NCBI GenBank assembly: GCA_948443805.1
Contig: CAOJUB010000008.1
Span: 5,622-69,621 of the forward strand
DNA: 64,000 nucleotides
DNA from: an uncultured Clostridia bacterium
Lineage (GTDB): Bacteria > Bacillota > Clostridia > Oscillospirales > UBA644
Direction of reading: 5' to 3'
Both the position numbers and the translations under genes were made by a program. Under the pieces are notes generated by a model. That model was not told the DNA's origin, did not search any database, and worked only from the letters and a program-made list of their open reading frames with translations. Below, one piece after another: positions 10,509 through 34,850 of this stretch (the stretch's first letter is position 1; every line of letters begins with the position of its first letter).

Positions 10509-10988
10509 ATGAGAAGAAAAGAACGCGAAATATCAAAAGAAGCCGCCCTTCAGATCGCCGACGCCTGTCTCTGGGCAGCGCTCTCTATGACAGAGCCAGA
10601 CGGAACGCCCTATGCGGTTCCCGTCAGCATTGCAAGGAGGGAAACGACCGTTTATTTTCACTGTGCCAAAAACGGAAAAAAAACAGAATTACTGCAAAAA
10701 AATCCTTCGGTATGCCTGACCTGTGTAAGCCAAGCCGTTCCGGTTCCCGAAAAATACACCATGGCCTATAAATCGGCGCTCCTTTTCGGTAAGGCCTCTG
10801 AAGTTACCAACGAAGCAGAAAAAACCGAAGCGCTGAAACTTCTTGTTCTGCGATACGCCGCGGAATACCTGGATCGCTTTGAAGCCATTCTCTCTGCTTC
10901 TCTGGAAAGCACGGCGGTATGGAAAATTGAAATCAGCCAAATCACCGGAAAAAGCAACCCGCTGCCCTCCGAAAACCCAGAAAAATAA
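10509..10988 (+). CDS. Pyridoxamine 5'-phosphate oxidase-like FMN-binding protein (NimA-like)
   Basis: MRRKERE start, PYAVPVS, VYFHCAKNGKK, NPSVCLTCV. Confidence 0.85.
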   Translation: MRRKEREISKEAALQIADACLWAALSMTEPDGTPYAVPVSIARRETTVYFHCAKNGKKTELLQKNPSVCLTCVSQAVPVPEKYTMAYKSALLFGKASEVTNEAEKTEALKLLVLRYAAEYLDRFEAILSASLESTAVWKIEISQITGKSNPLPSENPEK

Positions 10989-11072
10989 AACCCGGCCGGC
11001 ACCGCAAAACGAAGGCCGGAACTCCTGGATATGAATATCGGCACAAAGAAGAAGAAAAAAAAGACTTCCGCC

Positions 11073-11104
11073 TTGGGGCGCCCTCCGTAAGGAAGGCGCC
11101 CCAA
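11073..11104 (-). repeat. GC-rich palindrome, copy 1 (probable terminator and cassette end)
   Basis: Minus strand TTGGGGCGCCTTCC-TTAC-GGAGGGCGCCCCAA. Related copy at 34777-34810. Confidence 0.8.
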
Positions 11105-11159
11105 TTTTATATGGATTTTAGTGTCAAAATCCGATGCTCGCTATAAATATGGACAAGTG

Positions 11160-11972
11160 TTATTTTTTGAATCCTCTATAACTCCCAAAACCAAGCATAT
11201 ATGCTGCCATGGCAACTGCCAAATCTTCGGATTCGATATCCTGTTTTGCCGCCAGTTCTCTCAGCTCATCAATAACAGTATCGTGAGGAACAATAGTTCC
11301 TTCCAGCTCTTTTACTGCGTTCTCAATAACTGAGGGAAGAATCATACACATTTGATAAAAAGCATCGTCTTGCCCTGTAACCAATGCGTAAAATTGATCT
11401 AGACTAACCCTGCGAATCAGTTTATGACCAACCTTGCGCTTATCAACTGTCGTTTCCCATTTGATATTTTGTGATCGTTGAGCAATCGCTTCCACCAAGA
11501 AGCACGCACAATCATCATCGTTCAAAAGTTGGTTTTGCATTTTAATAAAAGTTTTACCAGCTGAAGCAGAATTCATTGTGTTGTGCTTATTTTTCATTTC
11601 AACATAAACAGTGTGTACAATCCCGGCATCAGGGATTGATATGCCGTCTGCATTCTCATAAATGACATCCCAGCCGCCTTCTTCTCCGTTCAGCGGCACA
11701 TGGCAGTTCTCTATGTATTGAAATATGCGCTGATGAAAATATCCGATATCGTTATTGTTTGATTTATCCCTTTGACGAAATATTTCGTTACTGACAATTT
11801 CATCCCAAGTAGACTGATAAACTGTTTTATCAAAAATTAGCTTAATCGGATCAATGATATTTTTGTTGAAACGCTTTAAATCAAAAGATTCAAGCTTTTC
11901 TCCGTACTTCTCAATAGTTGCTTTTACATGGTTCATAAAATCTTCTTCACTTATAAAATTCAATCCCCACAT
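11160..11972 (-). CDS. Type II restriction endonuclease, Eco47II/Sau96I family (probably GGNCC)
   Basis: NKNIIDPIKLIFDK, EIFRQRDKSNNNDIGYFHQ, WDV...EMKNKHNTMNS PD-(D/E)xK core. Shares base 11972 with the MTase stop. Confidence 0.85.
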   Translation of the reverse strand: MWGLNFISEEDFMNHVKATIEKYGEKLESFDLKRFNKNIIDPIKLIFDKTVYQSTWDEIVSNEIFRQRDKSNNNDIGYFHQRIFQYIENCHVPLNGEEGGWDVIYENADGISIPDAGIVHTVYVEMKNKHNTMNSASAGKTFIKMQNQLLNDDDCACFLVEAIAQRSQNIKWETTVDKRKVGHKLIRRVSLDQFYALVTGQDDAFYQMCMILPSVIENAVKELEGTIVPHDTVIDELRELAAKQDIESEDLAVAMAAYMLGFGSYRGFKK

Positions 11973-13201
11973 TATAGACTCTCCAATGCTTCTTTTATTC
12001 TAGTAGCAATATCATATGCTAAATTAACAGGAACTGCGTTACCAACTTGCTTATATTGCTGTCCAACACTACCGCAGAACTGCCAATCATCAGGAAAGCT
12101 CTGACATCTTGCATTTTCACGAATCGTAAACGGACGAGCTTCTAACGGATGACAACGATCTGTTTGTTTCTGACTGGGAGAAGTAAGAACGGTTAAAGAA
12201 GGCTCGTCAAGGCTTAATCTTCGTAAAATTCCAGTTCTTCCGCCTTCCATATACCAACAGCTTTTCATATATTCCTTTGCTATATCTTCGGGAATATCAC
12301 GCCAGTAACCACCGGGAGGAACTAACTCAAATATTTTTCGTTTATATTCAGAATATAGTGTGCCTTCGCTTTTAGGGCAATCAATTAAAACATCTCTAAG
12401 CACGGGTTTATATTTGTGAGGAGCAGGAAATTCAAACGACAGCTTATCCTTCAAATCGTTCCGAATTCCTATTGTAATAAGTCGTTCCCGCTTTTGAGCA
12501 ACGCCATAATCCCATGCGTTTAGTACTTTTTTCTGAATGGTATAACCTGTGCTTTCAAAAATCTCTGTAATAGTTTTATAAGTGCGACCTCTGTCGTGAG
12601 TAAGTAATCCTCTTACATTCTCAAATAAGAACATCTTAGGCTGTAACTGTTCTAAAAATTTTGCGTAGTGATAAAAGAGAGTTCCACGAGCATCCTCAAG
12701 TCCCAATCGTTTTCCTGCATAAGAAAAGCTTTGACAAGGAGCTCCGCCCGATAATAAGTCGAGTTCTCCCTCAACAAGTCCGAAATACTCTTTCAAATCA
12801 AGACAGGAAATATTCGCTATATCATCATTGATAACACGCCAATTAGGACGATTACATTTTAATGTGTCAGAGGCATCCTTATCAAATTCGATAAGTCCTA
12901 ATGTATCAAATCCTGCTTTTTCTATGCCAAGAGCTAACCCTCCTGCACCGGCAAACAGTTCTATTGTGGTAAACGATTTAGGTATAGGAATAGATTCTTC
13001 TTCCTGAACGATTTCTATAATGTCGCCGATGTTACATTGCAGTGCAGCACAAATTTTTTCGATACTTTCAAAGGAAACGGTCTCATTCTTGCCCATTCGA
13101 GCCATTACATTGAAACTAATACCTGCCGCCTCTTTCAATTCTGTTTTATTCATATTTTTGTCTATGAGAAGTTTCCACAAGTTGTTGTAGCAAACAGCCA
13201 T
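11972..13201 (-). CDS. DNA (cytosine-5) methyltransferase with N-terminal XRE-type HTH
   Basis: First ~65 aa are an HTH (YNNLWKLLIDKNMNKTEL...ICAALQCNIGDI). Then ELFAGAGG, GGAPCQSFS, ENVRG, QKRERL, QVGNAVP. Confidence 0.93.
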   Translation of the reverse strand: MAVCYNNLWKLLIDKNMNKTELKEAAGISFNVMARMGKNETVSFESIEKICAALQCNIGDIIEIVQEEESIPIPKSFTTIELFAGAGGLALGIEKAGFDTLGLIEFDKDASDTLKCNRPNWRVINDDIANISCLDLKEYFGLVEGELDLLSGGAPCQSFSYAGKRLGLEDARGTLFYHYAKFLEQLQPKMFLFENVRGLLTHDRGRTYKTITEIFESTGYTIQKKVLNAWDYGVAQKRERLITIGIRNDLKDKLSFEFPAPHKYKPVLRDVLIDCPKSEGTLYSEYKRKIFELVPPGGYWRDIPEDIAKEYMKSCWYMEGGRTGILRRLSLDEPSLTVLTSPSQKQTDRCHPLEARPFTIRENARCQSFPDDWQFCGSVGQQYKQVGNAVPVNLAYDIATRIKEALESL

Positions 13202-13253
13202 TGTATTACCTCCGCATTGCTAAAATCAAAAAATACACAAATGGGTTATTTAT

Positions 13254-13305
13254 ATAATACCATATTCTTGTCGAAAAATCAATAGTTCTCACGATTTCGT
13301 TAGAA
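13254..13305 (-). promoter_or_regulatory. MTase promoter with upstream inverted repeat (candidate HTH operator)
   Basis: TTGATT (13282-13277), 17 bp, TGgTATTAT. Inverted repeat TTCTCACGA-TT-TCGTTAGAA at 13286-13305. Confidence 0.5.
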
Positions 13306-13377
13306 AATCTTTTTGAATGAACTTAAAAAAGGAGAGGCTACTTCCTTATGTAGCCTTTCCCTTTCGGAAGCCGTTTT

Positions 13378-14082
13378 TTATTCCACGGTTTTTGCCACTT
13401 TCAACGTTTTTAAATACGACTTTTGTTCATCAGTGATCCGACGGCTTTCCACCGCTTTCTGAATGGCTTTATTATGCGTCCAGGGCGACAGCCGGCGGTT
13501 TTCAAAATACGGCAGAACCGCCTGGTACTGTTTGGCAAGCGCCGTGGCGAAATACCAGGCGATCATCATATTCACATAATATTCCTTCGACTGAACACCG
13601 GCAACCAATGCCGGATAATCCGGAGAAAAAGCACCGTCCAGATACCAGTTCATCAAAAGACCGATCCCATAGCGGACGGTGTAACACCGGTCAGAAGCAA
13701 TCCAGCGCCGGATCGCCAAAAGCAGCTCCGGCAGATGCTTCCCGAAAATTTTCGGCGACATCATATCACAGGTCGCCCAATTATCCACATACGGCAAAAA
13801 ATCATCCAGAAGCCGGATGGTTTCCTCATAATCCCGGCATTTTTCTATCAGAAAGGCATGCAAATTATTTTCTTCATAATAATCGTGCGGCAACTGTTTC
13901 AAAAAAACCGACGCCTCCGGCGTTTTTGCAAAATCCGACGCGAATTTTCGCAGCGCCGGCGTACGAACGCCGATAATCGTCTCGCTGTCCACCGTCGGGA
14001 TCAGTTTGGAATGAAACGCCCGGTAAGCTGTATCCTGCAGGGAAAATAACTGTTTTTGAACCGACTGACAAACCTGTTCCAA
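13378..14082 (-). CDS. DNA alkylation repair protein (AlkD-like)
   Basis: IIGVRTPALR, VDNWATCD, YYVNMMIAWYFATALAKQ, HNKAIQKAVESRR. TTG start after AGGAGG. Confidence 0.88.
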   Translation of the reverse strand: MEQVCQSVQKQLFSLQDTAYRAFHSKLIPTVDSETIIGVRTPALRKFASDFAKTPEASVFLKQLPHDYYEENNLHAFLIEKCRDYEETIRLLDDFLPYVDNWATCDMMSPKIFGKHLPELLLAIRRWIASDRCYTVRYGIGLLMNWYLDGAFSPDYPALVAGVQSKEYYVNMMIAWYFATALAKQYQAVLPYFENRRLSPWTHNKAIQKAVESRRITDEQKSYLKTLKVAKTVE

Positions 14083-34012: not shown

Positions 34013-34123
34013 ACCGTTCCTGCCGGTAAAAAAAGAAACTCCGGAAGAAGATCACTTGGTCAGCCGGGTAATTTACATGAAAACCGGCGAAAAATTGTAA
34101 TTGACAAATCAGGAGGTTCCTTT

Positions 34124-34672
34124 ATGAACCATAGCGGCACACAAAGGTTAGAAACGGAGCGACTCATTTTAAGAAGATTCGTGAATGAGGATGCTCTATC
34201 CATGTATCAAAATTGGGCGGCAGACAAGGAAGTTACCAAATACTTAACATGGCCTCCCCACCCGAATCAGGAAGTAAGCCGGAAAGTTGTGGAAGATTGG
34301 GTAAAAGCATATGACAGCAAAAATTATTATCATTGGGCCATCATACCGAAGGAAAAAGGAGAACCCGTCGGAAGCATAACTGTCGTGCATATGAACGAAG
34401 AGATCTCTATGGCACATATCGGCTATTGTATCGGAAAAACTTGGTGGAATAACGGTATCACATCAGAGGCATGTAAAGCCGTTATGGATTTTCTTTTTGA
34501 TATTGTCAATGTAAATCGTATAGAAGCCCGGCATGATCCGCGAAATCCTAACTCAGGCAAAGTTATGAAAAAATGCGGAATGAAATATGAGGGGACTTTA
34601 CGCAGCGCCGATCAAAATAACCAGGGAATATGTGACGCTTGCTATTATGCACTGCTAAAATCGGAACGTTAA
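34124..34672 (+). CDS. GNAT N-acetyltransferase (RimJ/RimL-like), lower GC than neighbours
   Basis: LETERLILRRF, IGYCIGKTWWNNGITSEA, NPNSGKVMKKCGMKYEG. Confidence 0.9.
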   Translation: MNHSGTQRLETERLILRRFVNEDALSMYQNWAADKEVTKYLTWPPHPNQEVSRKVVEDWVKAYDSKNYYHWAIIPKEKGEPVGSITVVHMNEEISMAHIGYCIGKTWWNNGITSEACKAVMDFLFDIVNVNRIEARHDPRNPNSGKVMKKCGMKYEGTLRSADQNNQGICDACYYALLKSER

Positions 34673-34776
34673 ATTCCCATTCTGTAAAAAAACAACTCTT
34701 TGAACTGCACTTTGACGGACATACAAAAAACATTGAGTTGCGACACCGCGATCAAAAAAGAAAACAACGATAAATC

Positions 34777-34810
34777 ATGGGGGCGCTTTCCTTGCGGAAA
34801 GCGCCCCCAT
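34777..34810 (+). repeat. GC-rich palindrome, copy 2
   Basis: Perfect 15-bp stem ATGGGGGCGCTTTCC-TTGC-GGAAAGCGCCCCCAT. Related to 11073-11104. Confidence 0.8.
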
Positions 34811-34850
34811 AACGTTTCTTCAATTTTTATACATAAAATTTCATACTGAA

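Follow-up and report, generated by a model that had tools for sequence, protein, structure and literature searches.

The 64,000-nt stretch of DNA analysed here (the window, C8:5622-69621, from an uncultured bacterium of the Clostridia) harbors an AT-rich insert with a restriction-modification (R-M) gene pair, located between alkD, which encodes a DNA alkylation repair protein, and a gene of the pyridoxamine-5′-phosphate-oxidase family. The insert is very likely a recombinase-less integrative element related to Tn4451/Tn4453, and represents either a non-autonomous element or the reduced form of a larger one. Judged by sequence, both of its ends belong to a conserved family of elements, which are found at the dinucleotide AA within the loops of intrinsic terminators and whose complete member encodes a large serine recombinase. 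The insert (11075-13363) comprises 2289 bp with a GC content of 38.1%, as compared to 47.2% for the genome (assembly of 1.81 Mb in 35 contigs), and holds two open reading frames, M for the DNA methyltransferase and R for the restriction endonuclease, and nothing else. An earlier interpretation of the window drawn from its letters alone (the sequence-only reading) had described just such an AT-rich insert of about 2.29 kb whose only cargo is a methyltransferase and an endonuclease, without a recombinase. The public sequencing runs containing the window sequence are of mouse gut origin.

By its flanking sequences, the insert entered a predicted bidirectional terminator common to alkD (13378..14082, minus strand, 234 amino acids as called in public assemblies, Pfam DNA_alkylation) and the convergent pyridoxamine-oxidase-family gene (10509..10988, plus strand, Pfam Pyridox_ox_2). 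On the minus strand, the 5′ half of the split terminator (13364..13379, AAAAAAC-GGCTTCCG-A), the putative B arm of the bacterial attachment site attB, begins within the alkD stop codon, and the 3′ half (11055..11072, GG-CGGAAGTC-TTTTTTTT) would constitute the B′ arm. Upon rejoining, the two segments form an 8-bp stem between A and T tracts. As the sequence-only reading had proposed, removal of the insert thus restores an intrinsic terminator from the flanks: the rejoined minus strand reads AAAAAAC-GGCTTCCG-AAAGG-CGGAAGTC-T8 with a folding energy of -18.6 kcal/mol, and 9 of 500 shuffled sequences fold equally well.

Both ends of the insert are palindromic and can form hairpins, as had also been noticed before. 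The right end (RE) palindrome, putatively the P arm of the element's attachment site attP, is located at 11075..11102 on the minus strand (GGGGCGCCTTCCTTACGGAGGGCGCCCC) and folds into a stem of 12-14 bp (z = -4.5 to -4.7). It displays the palindrome TTGGGGCRCCTTCCTTACGGAGGGYGCCCC of the family at 11102-11075, followed by AA at 11074-11073, and 20 of its 21 outer nucleotides agree with the family consensus. The left end (LE) palindrome, the putative P′ arm (13331..13361, minus strand, GGGAAAGGCTACATAAGGAAGTAGCCTCTCC), forms a stem of 7+8 bp followed by T6, which is part of a T-rich tail at 13322..13330 (TTTTTT on the minus strand). The entire segment 13363-13325 follows the pattern AA|GGGA..C..C(G/A)TAAGGAAG.. 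plus T-rich tail, with 19 of 21 outer nucleotides identical to the LE of locus L199 and 16-18 of 21 to other LEs of the family, all of which possess T-rich tails. The octamer TAAGGAAG, which the sequence-only reading had reported in inverted orientation near both ends, is indeed present on the plus strand at 11088-11095 and as its reverse complement at 13341-13348, 13 and 15 nt from the junctions proposed at that time. It is part of the longer sequence TCCGTAAGGAAG shared by LE and RE, which are imperfect inverted repeats of about 30 bp.

The LE hairpin together with its tail (AGGCTACATAAGGAAGTAGCCT + CTCCTTTTTT) is scored as a terminator in the terminator scan with a fold of -22.4 kcal/mol, so that, as suggested earlier, it may well substitute for the disrupted alkD terminator. 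Behind the RE hairpin, the strand of the pyridoxamine-oxidase-family gene has a T-rich stretch, and on the strand of the R gene the old T8 run lies 12 nt downstream of the hairpin. The previously reported duplication of CCTT is present at 11071-74 and 13360-63; what is truly repeated, however, are only the two base pairs of the core AA, read as TT on the plus strand (11073-74 and 13362-63). The apparent 4-bp repeat is a coincidence, because GGG opens the LE and GG the 3′ flank. The element itself therefore spans 11075-13361 (2287 bp), and its putative crossover core is left in one copy beside the RE (11073..11074) and in another beside the LE (13362..13363), both assigned on the minus strand by comparison with the family members described below.

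Each end has a consensus in the family, namely TTGGGGC(A/G)CCTTCCTTACGGAGGG(T/C)GCCCC|AA for the RE and AA|GGGA..C..C(G/A)TAAGGAAG...CTCCC, followed by a T-rich tail, for the LE. The LE palindrome AA|GGGAGACAC(T/C)(T/C)CGTAAGGAAGTTGTCTCCC was found in the flanks of RE copies, besides the variants GGGAGAGGCT(T/C)C(G/A)TAAGGAAGT(C/T)CTCTCCC and GGGAAACACTCCGCAAGGAAGTCGTTTCCC, each of which is again followed by a T-rich tail. In a search with the degenerate palindrome, the RE was detected in 24 of 401 genomes of the order, representing 17 genera, and the reversed pattern used as a control had no match in the same 401 genomes. Most of the RE matches read GGGCACCTTCCTTACGGAGGGTGCCC and hence carry a compensatory change with respect to the window copy; compensatory changes from CG to CA/TG are seen as well. 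Many matches are situated near contig ends, as repeats are. Furthermore, the RE palindrome is present in at least 120 metagenome stretches, whereas viral contigs contained neither the RE nor an RE-AA-LE junction. No Rfam family covers the ends or the subterminal module described below.

Between these ends, other copies carry a MatE transporter gene, a phosphotransferase gene, a radical-SAM gene, AT-rich genes without assignment, a 351-bp non-coding mini-element or complete Tn4451-like elements. The same ends around other cargo were what the sequence-only reading had named as support for its model. This distribution also bears on the view that no site-specific event took place at all, the R-M genes having arrived by illegitimate, microhomology-mediated or homologous exchange next to hairpins that are native host terminators and whose stem complementarity is due to chance. 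In its favour, neither a shared 8-mer nor a stem of 8 bp including one G-U pair is unusual when taken singly, given that the junctions could be chosen freely; the left hairpin resembles ordinary terminators, and a similar GC-rich hairpin occurs in the window at 34779-34808. On the other hand, the two hairpins are nearly base for base those of element ends at dozens of terminators in unrelated genomes, the AA at the junction and the subterminal module match as well, and the empty allele L268 described below contradicts a conserved host terminator. This view is therewith effectively refuted.

The insertion site is as characteristic as the ends. Among 61 distinct 3′ flanks of the RE, 51 (84%) begin with AA, as compared to 7% at random positions in the same loci, and 53 (87%) contain a run of at least four T starting 5-17 nt further on (control 12%). 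Correspondingly, AA precedes the LE (core C(G/A)TAAGGAAG) at all ten distinct sites, in most of them with a run of A residues 6-12 nt upstream. Besides the window, nine LE/RE pairs rejoin via a single AA into terminators with folding energies of -15 to -32 kcal/mol. The flanks of the 1.87-kb element in G250 yield GAAGTTCTC-GAAA-GAGAACTTC, those of L220 yield ATCCGTGCC-AACC-GGCACGGAT, the rejoined terminators of L161 and L186 possess stems of 10 and 13 bp, respectively, and the outer flanks of G148, L131, L167, L194 and L199 rejoin into terminators as well. Two of the pairs that enclose the phosphotransferase cassette have rejoined folds of -30 and -32 kcal/mol; the other seven, out of a set of nine pairs, range from -15 to -31 kcal/mol.

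For one of these sites, that of L199, the uninterrupted state is known from other strains. The empty allele L268 reads ...AAGAACCACCAAGGCAGAAAGGTGGTTCTT..., and the occupied allele L199 reads ...GGCAGAA|GGGAGAGG...element...GTGCCCCAA|AGGTGGTTCTT.... The two alleles, in conjunction with the AA at both junctions, therefore demonstrate precise insertion at AA in the loop of a hairpin. The intact terminator that the sequence-only reading had expected at an empty site is hence borne out at the level of the family.

The enzyme most likely to move the family is suggested by the genes adjoining the RE. Of the 62 metagenome loci that extend far enough upstream of the RE, about 45 contain a recombinase gene on the RE strand whose 3′ end lies about 60 nt before the RE. 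Its product is a TnpX-like large serine recombinase with the domains Resolvase, Recombinase, Zn_ribbon_recom and DUF4368. The complete element in L194 (7153 bp) is arranged in the order LE, TnpV, a GLUG-motif protein, a NikA-like protein with a MobA/VirD2 relaxase, TnpW, recombinase and RE, which is the gene set of the integrative mobilisable elements Tn4451/Tn4453. A search of PLSDB with this element returned no near match except for one host gene. The integrase of Tn4451-type elements recombines 2-bp identical sequences with low target specificity, and TnpX is the sole element protein needed (PMC5704250). Large serine recombinases with DUF4368 form a "multi-targeting" clade that includes the TndX-like transposases, and one example in this clade uses a TT core with A- and T-rich ends (PMC10083194). 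The gene beside the RE in autonomous relatives thus points to a DUF4368 large serine recombinase of the TnpX/TndX clade as the most likely candidate for the enzyme that acts on the ends.

Alternatively, the ends might be used by another enzyme, either a DDE transposase generating a 2-bp duplication or an HUH/Y1 enzyme acting on the hairpins, and the link to the serine recombinase would be incidental. Formally, the ends do resemble terminal inverted repeats, about 30 bp long and flanked by a repeat of 2 bp, each of them can form a hairpin, and the targets are alike in structure rather than in sequence, as is the case for IS200/IS605, IS110-family elements and integron attC sites. Nevertheless, the large serine recombinase is the only recombinase in the complete 7.15-kb element, its gene abuts the RE in most loci, and Tn4451 recombination is characterised by a 2-bp identical core. 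Moreover, the two hairpins differ on a single strand, which does not suit the same-strand logic of HUH enzymes, and the genome encodes neither a Y1 nor an IS110-type enzyme. Another enzyme is accordingly quite improbable. The search for co-occurring HUH or IS110 enzymes recommended by the sequence-only reading gave a negative result, as both Y1 HUH transposases (PF01797) and IS110-type transposases (PF01548) are absent from the genome. As candidates for the identity of the element itself, IS200/IS605 and their miniatures were rejected because PF01797 is absent, the hairpins are inverted instead of lying on the same strand and AA is found at both junctions; IS110/IS1111 were rejected because PF01548 is missing from the genome and no such gene occurs in the elements of the family.

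Not all members of the family carry the recombinase gene. A cassette of 1141-1205 bp contains a single gene of the phosphotransferase family (with weak similarity to APH(3′), under the family cut-off) and no recombinase. It is found between matching terminator halves at three sites (L220, L161 and L186), and its RE abuts further distinct flanks in L170 and L182. One and the same recombinase-less cassette in several terminators shows that members of the family do move in trans. A look-up of the flanking protein of L220 returned no record. Other small members carry the MatE transporter gene (G250), the radical-SAM gene (G066, with a truncated LE) or AT-rich genes (G148). The smallest one, L131:1177-1528, is 351 bp long and contains no open reading frame in its approximately 300 nt of non-coding sequence; a match to the Gut-1 RNA (RF01706, 59 bits, above the gathering score) directly abuts its RE, and a weaker second match is inverted. 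Gut-1 was not found in 19 other loci. The earlier proposal that the cassette is moved in trans by an unidentified enzyme therefore holds for the family, for which a candidate enzyme can now be named. For the window copy, neither an empty allele nor a second insertion site was found, and its mobilisation in trans is what we infer from its relatives.

The window copy could also have reached its present size in situ, in that a complete autonomous element with R-M cargo integrated and internal deletions left only the ends and the R-M genes, without any mobilisation in trans. The small elements L147, L167, L199 and L224 are clearly deletion derivatives of this kind, retaining only a 3′ remnant of the recombinase gene (the last 30-60 codons). 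In addition, R-M systems resist loss, and the depletion of GGNCC in the genome described below (observed/expected 0.46) indicates long residence. Against this stands the absence of any remnant of recombinase or TnpV in the window, together with the RE-proximal module of the copy. This B-type subterminal module (11103..11159, minus strand, GTCCATA..TAGCGAGCATC and the small hairpin GGATTTTGACACTAAAATCC), which occupies the 57 nt from the R stop codon to the RE, aligns with the corresponding region of the phosphotransferase cassette and of L145, L175, L177, L180, L216 and L128, occurs inverted in L117 and shows compensatory changes in its hairpin stem. It is present in remnant-free cassettes at several sites, which in conjunction with the missing remnants favours arrival as a small cassette. 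Shrinkage in place is consequently a possible yet rather doubtful history, and arrival of this copy as a mini-cassette would be the preferred one. The presence of the B-type module in cassettes of the family also accounts for a 32-bp segment of the window (11112-11143) that recurs, apart from a single mismatch, in another organism's contigs of higher depth in the mouse-gut runs X2 and X4.

Several observations weigh against the assignment of the insert to a terminator-targeting, Tn4451-related element family moved by a serine recombinase. First of all, no empty allele of the alkD site was found: about 25 conspecific contigs and four Logan runs are all occupied with identical junctions, and no joint skipping the insert was present in any of them. 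Relatives cannot supply the empty site either, since the best alkD outside the species among 5.8 billion proteins is only 70% identical at the protein level. In 41 related genomes searched with the rejoined flanks, only alkD was recovered (65-77% nucleotide and 51-60% protein identity), with no synteny with the pyridoxamine-oxidase-family gene, and the genus stands alone among them. A large serine recombinase of the family type is absent from the window's assembly in a tblastn search, and a second canonical cassette was not found in the genome. With the recombinase gene in neither the insert nor the assembly, the window copy is filed as a non-autonomous derivative. Furthermore, the window LE is the most divergent of the set and equals its own RE in 14 of 21 positions, and none of the 82 loci with R-M homologues has these ends, so that the R-M cassette is known from a single site.

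Difficulties also arise in the family itself. The flanks of the LE/RE pairs L173, L218, L145 and L177 fail to match, which may reflect assembly chimeras across a repeated cassette, rearrangement or recombination between copies. In L123, L184 and L204, the RE palindrome (H) stands alone in an otherwise perfect terminator loop, as in AAAAGCCGCATC-aaag-H-caaa-GATGCGGCTTTT. In L154, L171 and L208, it is located within a hairpin to which the element's own upstream sequence contributes, and GA or GG replaces AA. The simple attP model explains neither arrangement. No clear case of a circular-form junction or a tandem array was found among the fetched family loci.

Two further observations concern the target sites. 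The right flank of L145 is identical to that of L161. At the locus of an SDR gene in a common gut species (L265-L274), the region upstream of the target terminator varies by strain and holds genes for a group II intron reverse transcriptase, tyrosine integrases and DUF6462 proteins.

A search of the genome for the hairpin consensus, likewise recommended by the sequence-only reading, yielded an RE look-alike, the left side of which fails the LE consensus. The RE-like palindrome TGGGGGCGCTTTCCTTGCGGAAAGCGCCCCCA at 34779-34808 is located 107 nt past the gene of a GNAT acetyltransferase (34124-34672) in a region with a GC content of 40-44% (34020-34850). AAAAAAAGAAAC and GTTTCTT may represent its outer arms, and at the junction ATAA stands in place of AA. 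The GNAT gene is present in all conspecific contigs, and the unit 34124-34808 may be an old, decayed cassette. The R-M insert, for its part, is fixed in this mouse-gut species in all strains seen.

From the combined evidence, a mechanism can be proposed. The attP site would consist of two imperfectly inverted arms of about 30 bp (RE and LE) around the 2-bp crossover core AA, predicted as ...GGAGGGTGCCCC-AA-GGGAGAGGC..., with each arm being palindromic in itself and bearing the core TCCGTAAGGAAG. The attB site would be the loop of an intrinsic (rho-independent) terminator with its succession of A-tract, stem, A-rich loop, stem and T-tract. Both sites would then be dyad-symmetric in the manner of serine-integrase sites, as far as their sequences indicate. 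Recombination at the AA of the loop would split the terminator, and the palindromic arms with their T-rich tails would serve as replacement terminators at both junctions, a function predicted here from their folds. In this manner, the arms would take over from the split terminator and thereby keep the flanking genes insulated. Excision would leave the rejoined site GGCTTCCGAAAGGCGGAAGTC.

In a more far-reaching interpretation, gut Clostridia possess a genome-wide cassette system in which Tn4451-like recombinases accept terminator loops as generic attB sites by virtue of their dyad architecture and not of their sequence. The palindromic arms would double as terminators, and a left arm of about 35 bp together with a right arm of about 30-90 bp would suffice to render any promoter-bearing gene mobilisable in trans, with the R-M pair, the phosphotransferase and MatE genes and even the non-coding unit of 351 bp as examples. 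We consider the chances of this interpretation to be even. The R-M element of the window would then be one such cassette and recombination-competent, given a supply of recombinase.

The cargo is a type II R-M operon on the minus strand, with the endonuclease gene adjoining the gene of a methyltransferase of the cognate type. R (11160..11972) encodes an endonuclease of the Eco47II family with 270 amino acids (Pfam RE_Eco47II, E = 7e-88), and M (11972..13201) a C5 cytosine DNA methyltransferase with 409 amino acids (Pfam DNA_methylase, E = 2e-82) and an N-terminal helix-turn-helix (HTH) domain of the Cro/C1 type (HTH_26, E = 4e-19). The start of R overlaps the stop codon of M (TAATG), leading to a gene overlap of 1 nt. 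The promoter/operator region (13202..13321, minus strand) contains a predicted -35 box (13282-13277) and -10 box (13259-13254) according to the promoter scan, as well as the dyad TCTAACGAAATCGTGAGA (13304-13287), which is conserved in the window and many homologous loci upstream of the -35 box and represents the predicted operator. An HTH-fused methylase and a conserved dyad are the components of a restriction-delay device: the operon would be autoregulated via the HTH domain of the methylase and this operator, and M and R would be translationally coupled.

Eco47II recognizes GGNCC, which is probably the specificity of the window system as well. Genome-wide, GGNCC occurs at 1589 sites (0.88/kb) with an observed/expected ratio of 0.46 under a maximal-order Markov model, as compared to 4.3/kb for CCNGG, and the insert contains no GGNCC. 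This depletion fits restriction avoidance under a long-resident, active R-M system matching the Eco47II family.

The R-M module is drawn from a very widely transferred pool. Relatives of the endonuclease are found in more than 583 species, and the best 80 of them, with protein identities of 76-95%, belong to several phyla and include Clostridia, Varibaculum, Treponema, Prevotella, Saccharibacteria and Veillonella. By blastn, nucleotide homology to 80 other R-M copies extends only from about 13314-13321 (113-120 bp upstream of M), the upstream limit of the promoter/operator region, to the stop of R at 11160. Since it ends inside the element ends and the flanks of the other copies lack the TAAGGAAG hairpins, the R-M module and the hairpin ends are separate things. 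The octamer is not enriched in the flanks of the 82 R-M loci (3 matches vs. about 1.3 expected). The possibility that the ends are conserved around other R-M copies is rejected, as the homology in these 82 loci does not reach beyond the promoter region on one side and the stop codon of R on the other.

As an observation on the homologues themselves, the R-M loci L030-L111 are modular, with breakpoints clustering about 113 bp upstream of M, at the start of M and within M past the HTH domain (window 12963-12980). In several genomes, the R-M module follows the same upstream gene and terminator or is located beside Thoeris genes (L111).

R-M units flanked by repeats without a transposase are known as putative mobile forms. 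The window element shares with them the R-M pair between inverted repeats, the precise insertion and the lack of an internal recombinase. It differs in that the family of elements to which its repeats belong can be identified and comes with a candidate enzyme and a defined target. This offers a concrete and testable mechanism for the spread of a naked R-M pair and of other defence or resistance genes as minimal units, a question of long standing. The RE and LE motifs also provide a simple means to delimit many small islands in genomes of gut Clostridia.

Integron cassettes are similar with respect to their single-gene units without a recombinase of their own, the structured palindromic site, the movement in trans and cargo such as R-M or resistance genes. 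Integrons, however, employ the tyrosine recombinase IntI, one attC per cassette and a single attI platform, whereas the family described here has two arms, a candidate serine recombinase, scattered terminators as targets and cassettes with their own promoter. The two different arms and the scattered targets argue against an identity with integron cassettes. As a possible route of gene capture, any gene between two terminators would be a candidate.

Palindromes or terminators as safe landing sites and hairpin ends are also features of IS1397/ISKpn1 and IS110-family elements, both in repetitive extragenic palindromes (REP), of class C group II introns at terminators and of IS200/IS605 and their miniatures. 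These use DDE, DEDD, reverse transcriptase or Y1 HUH enzymology; Y1 and IS110-type genes do not occur in the window genome, and L194 carries no such gene. For a serine-recombinase family, intrinsic terminators would be a generic safe landing site at which the element ends restore termination and thereby lower the cost of insertion.

The enzyme family and Tn4451 are already known, whereas terminator-loop targeting with palindromic replacement arms was not found described: the searchable literature contains no description of such targeting by elements of the Tn4451/TnpX/TndX type, and the core sequences of the ends occur in none of its papers. The closest relatives by enzyme are the members of the multi-targeting DUF4368 clade (Durrant et al. 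2022, PMC10083194), which exhibit the same domain architecture and integrate at many unrelated sites; for one of them, a core of TT (= AA) between A- and T-rich ends is reported. Neither terminators nor hairpins are mentioned in the main text of this study, and complementary target stems, palindromic arms and recombinase-less cassettes are not described there. Our observations suggest that part of this clade is perhaps tuned to a structural class of sites instead of being relaxed in specificity, which matters for the use of large serine recombinases as bacterial integration tools.

The closest relatives by gene content are Tn4451/Tn4453 from Clostridium perfringens and C. difficile. They share with the autonomous members of the family the genes for TnpV, TnpW, a relaxase and a large serine recombinase with DUF4368, and in both groups a 2-bp identical core is found at both junctions and many target sites are used. 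The core is GA in Tn4451 and AA in the family. Further differences from Tn4451 are the position of the recombinase gene at the right end beside the RE, the arms built as palindromes of about 30 bp with a T-rich tail and the targeting of terminator loops, to which the window copy adds that it has retained cargo only and no element genes.

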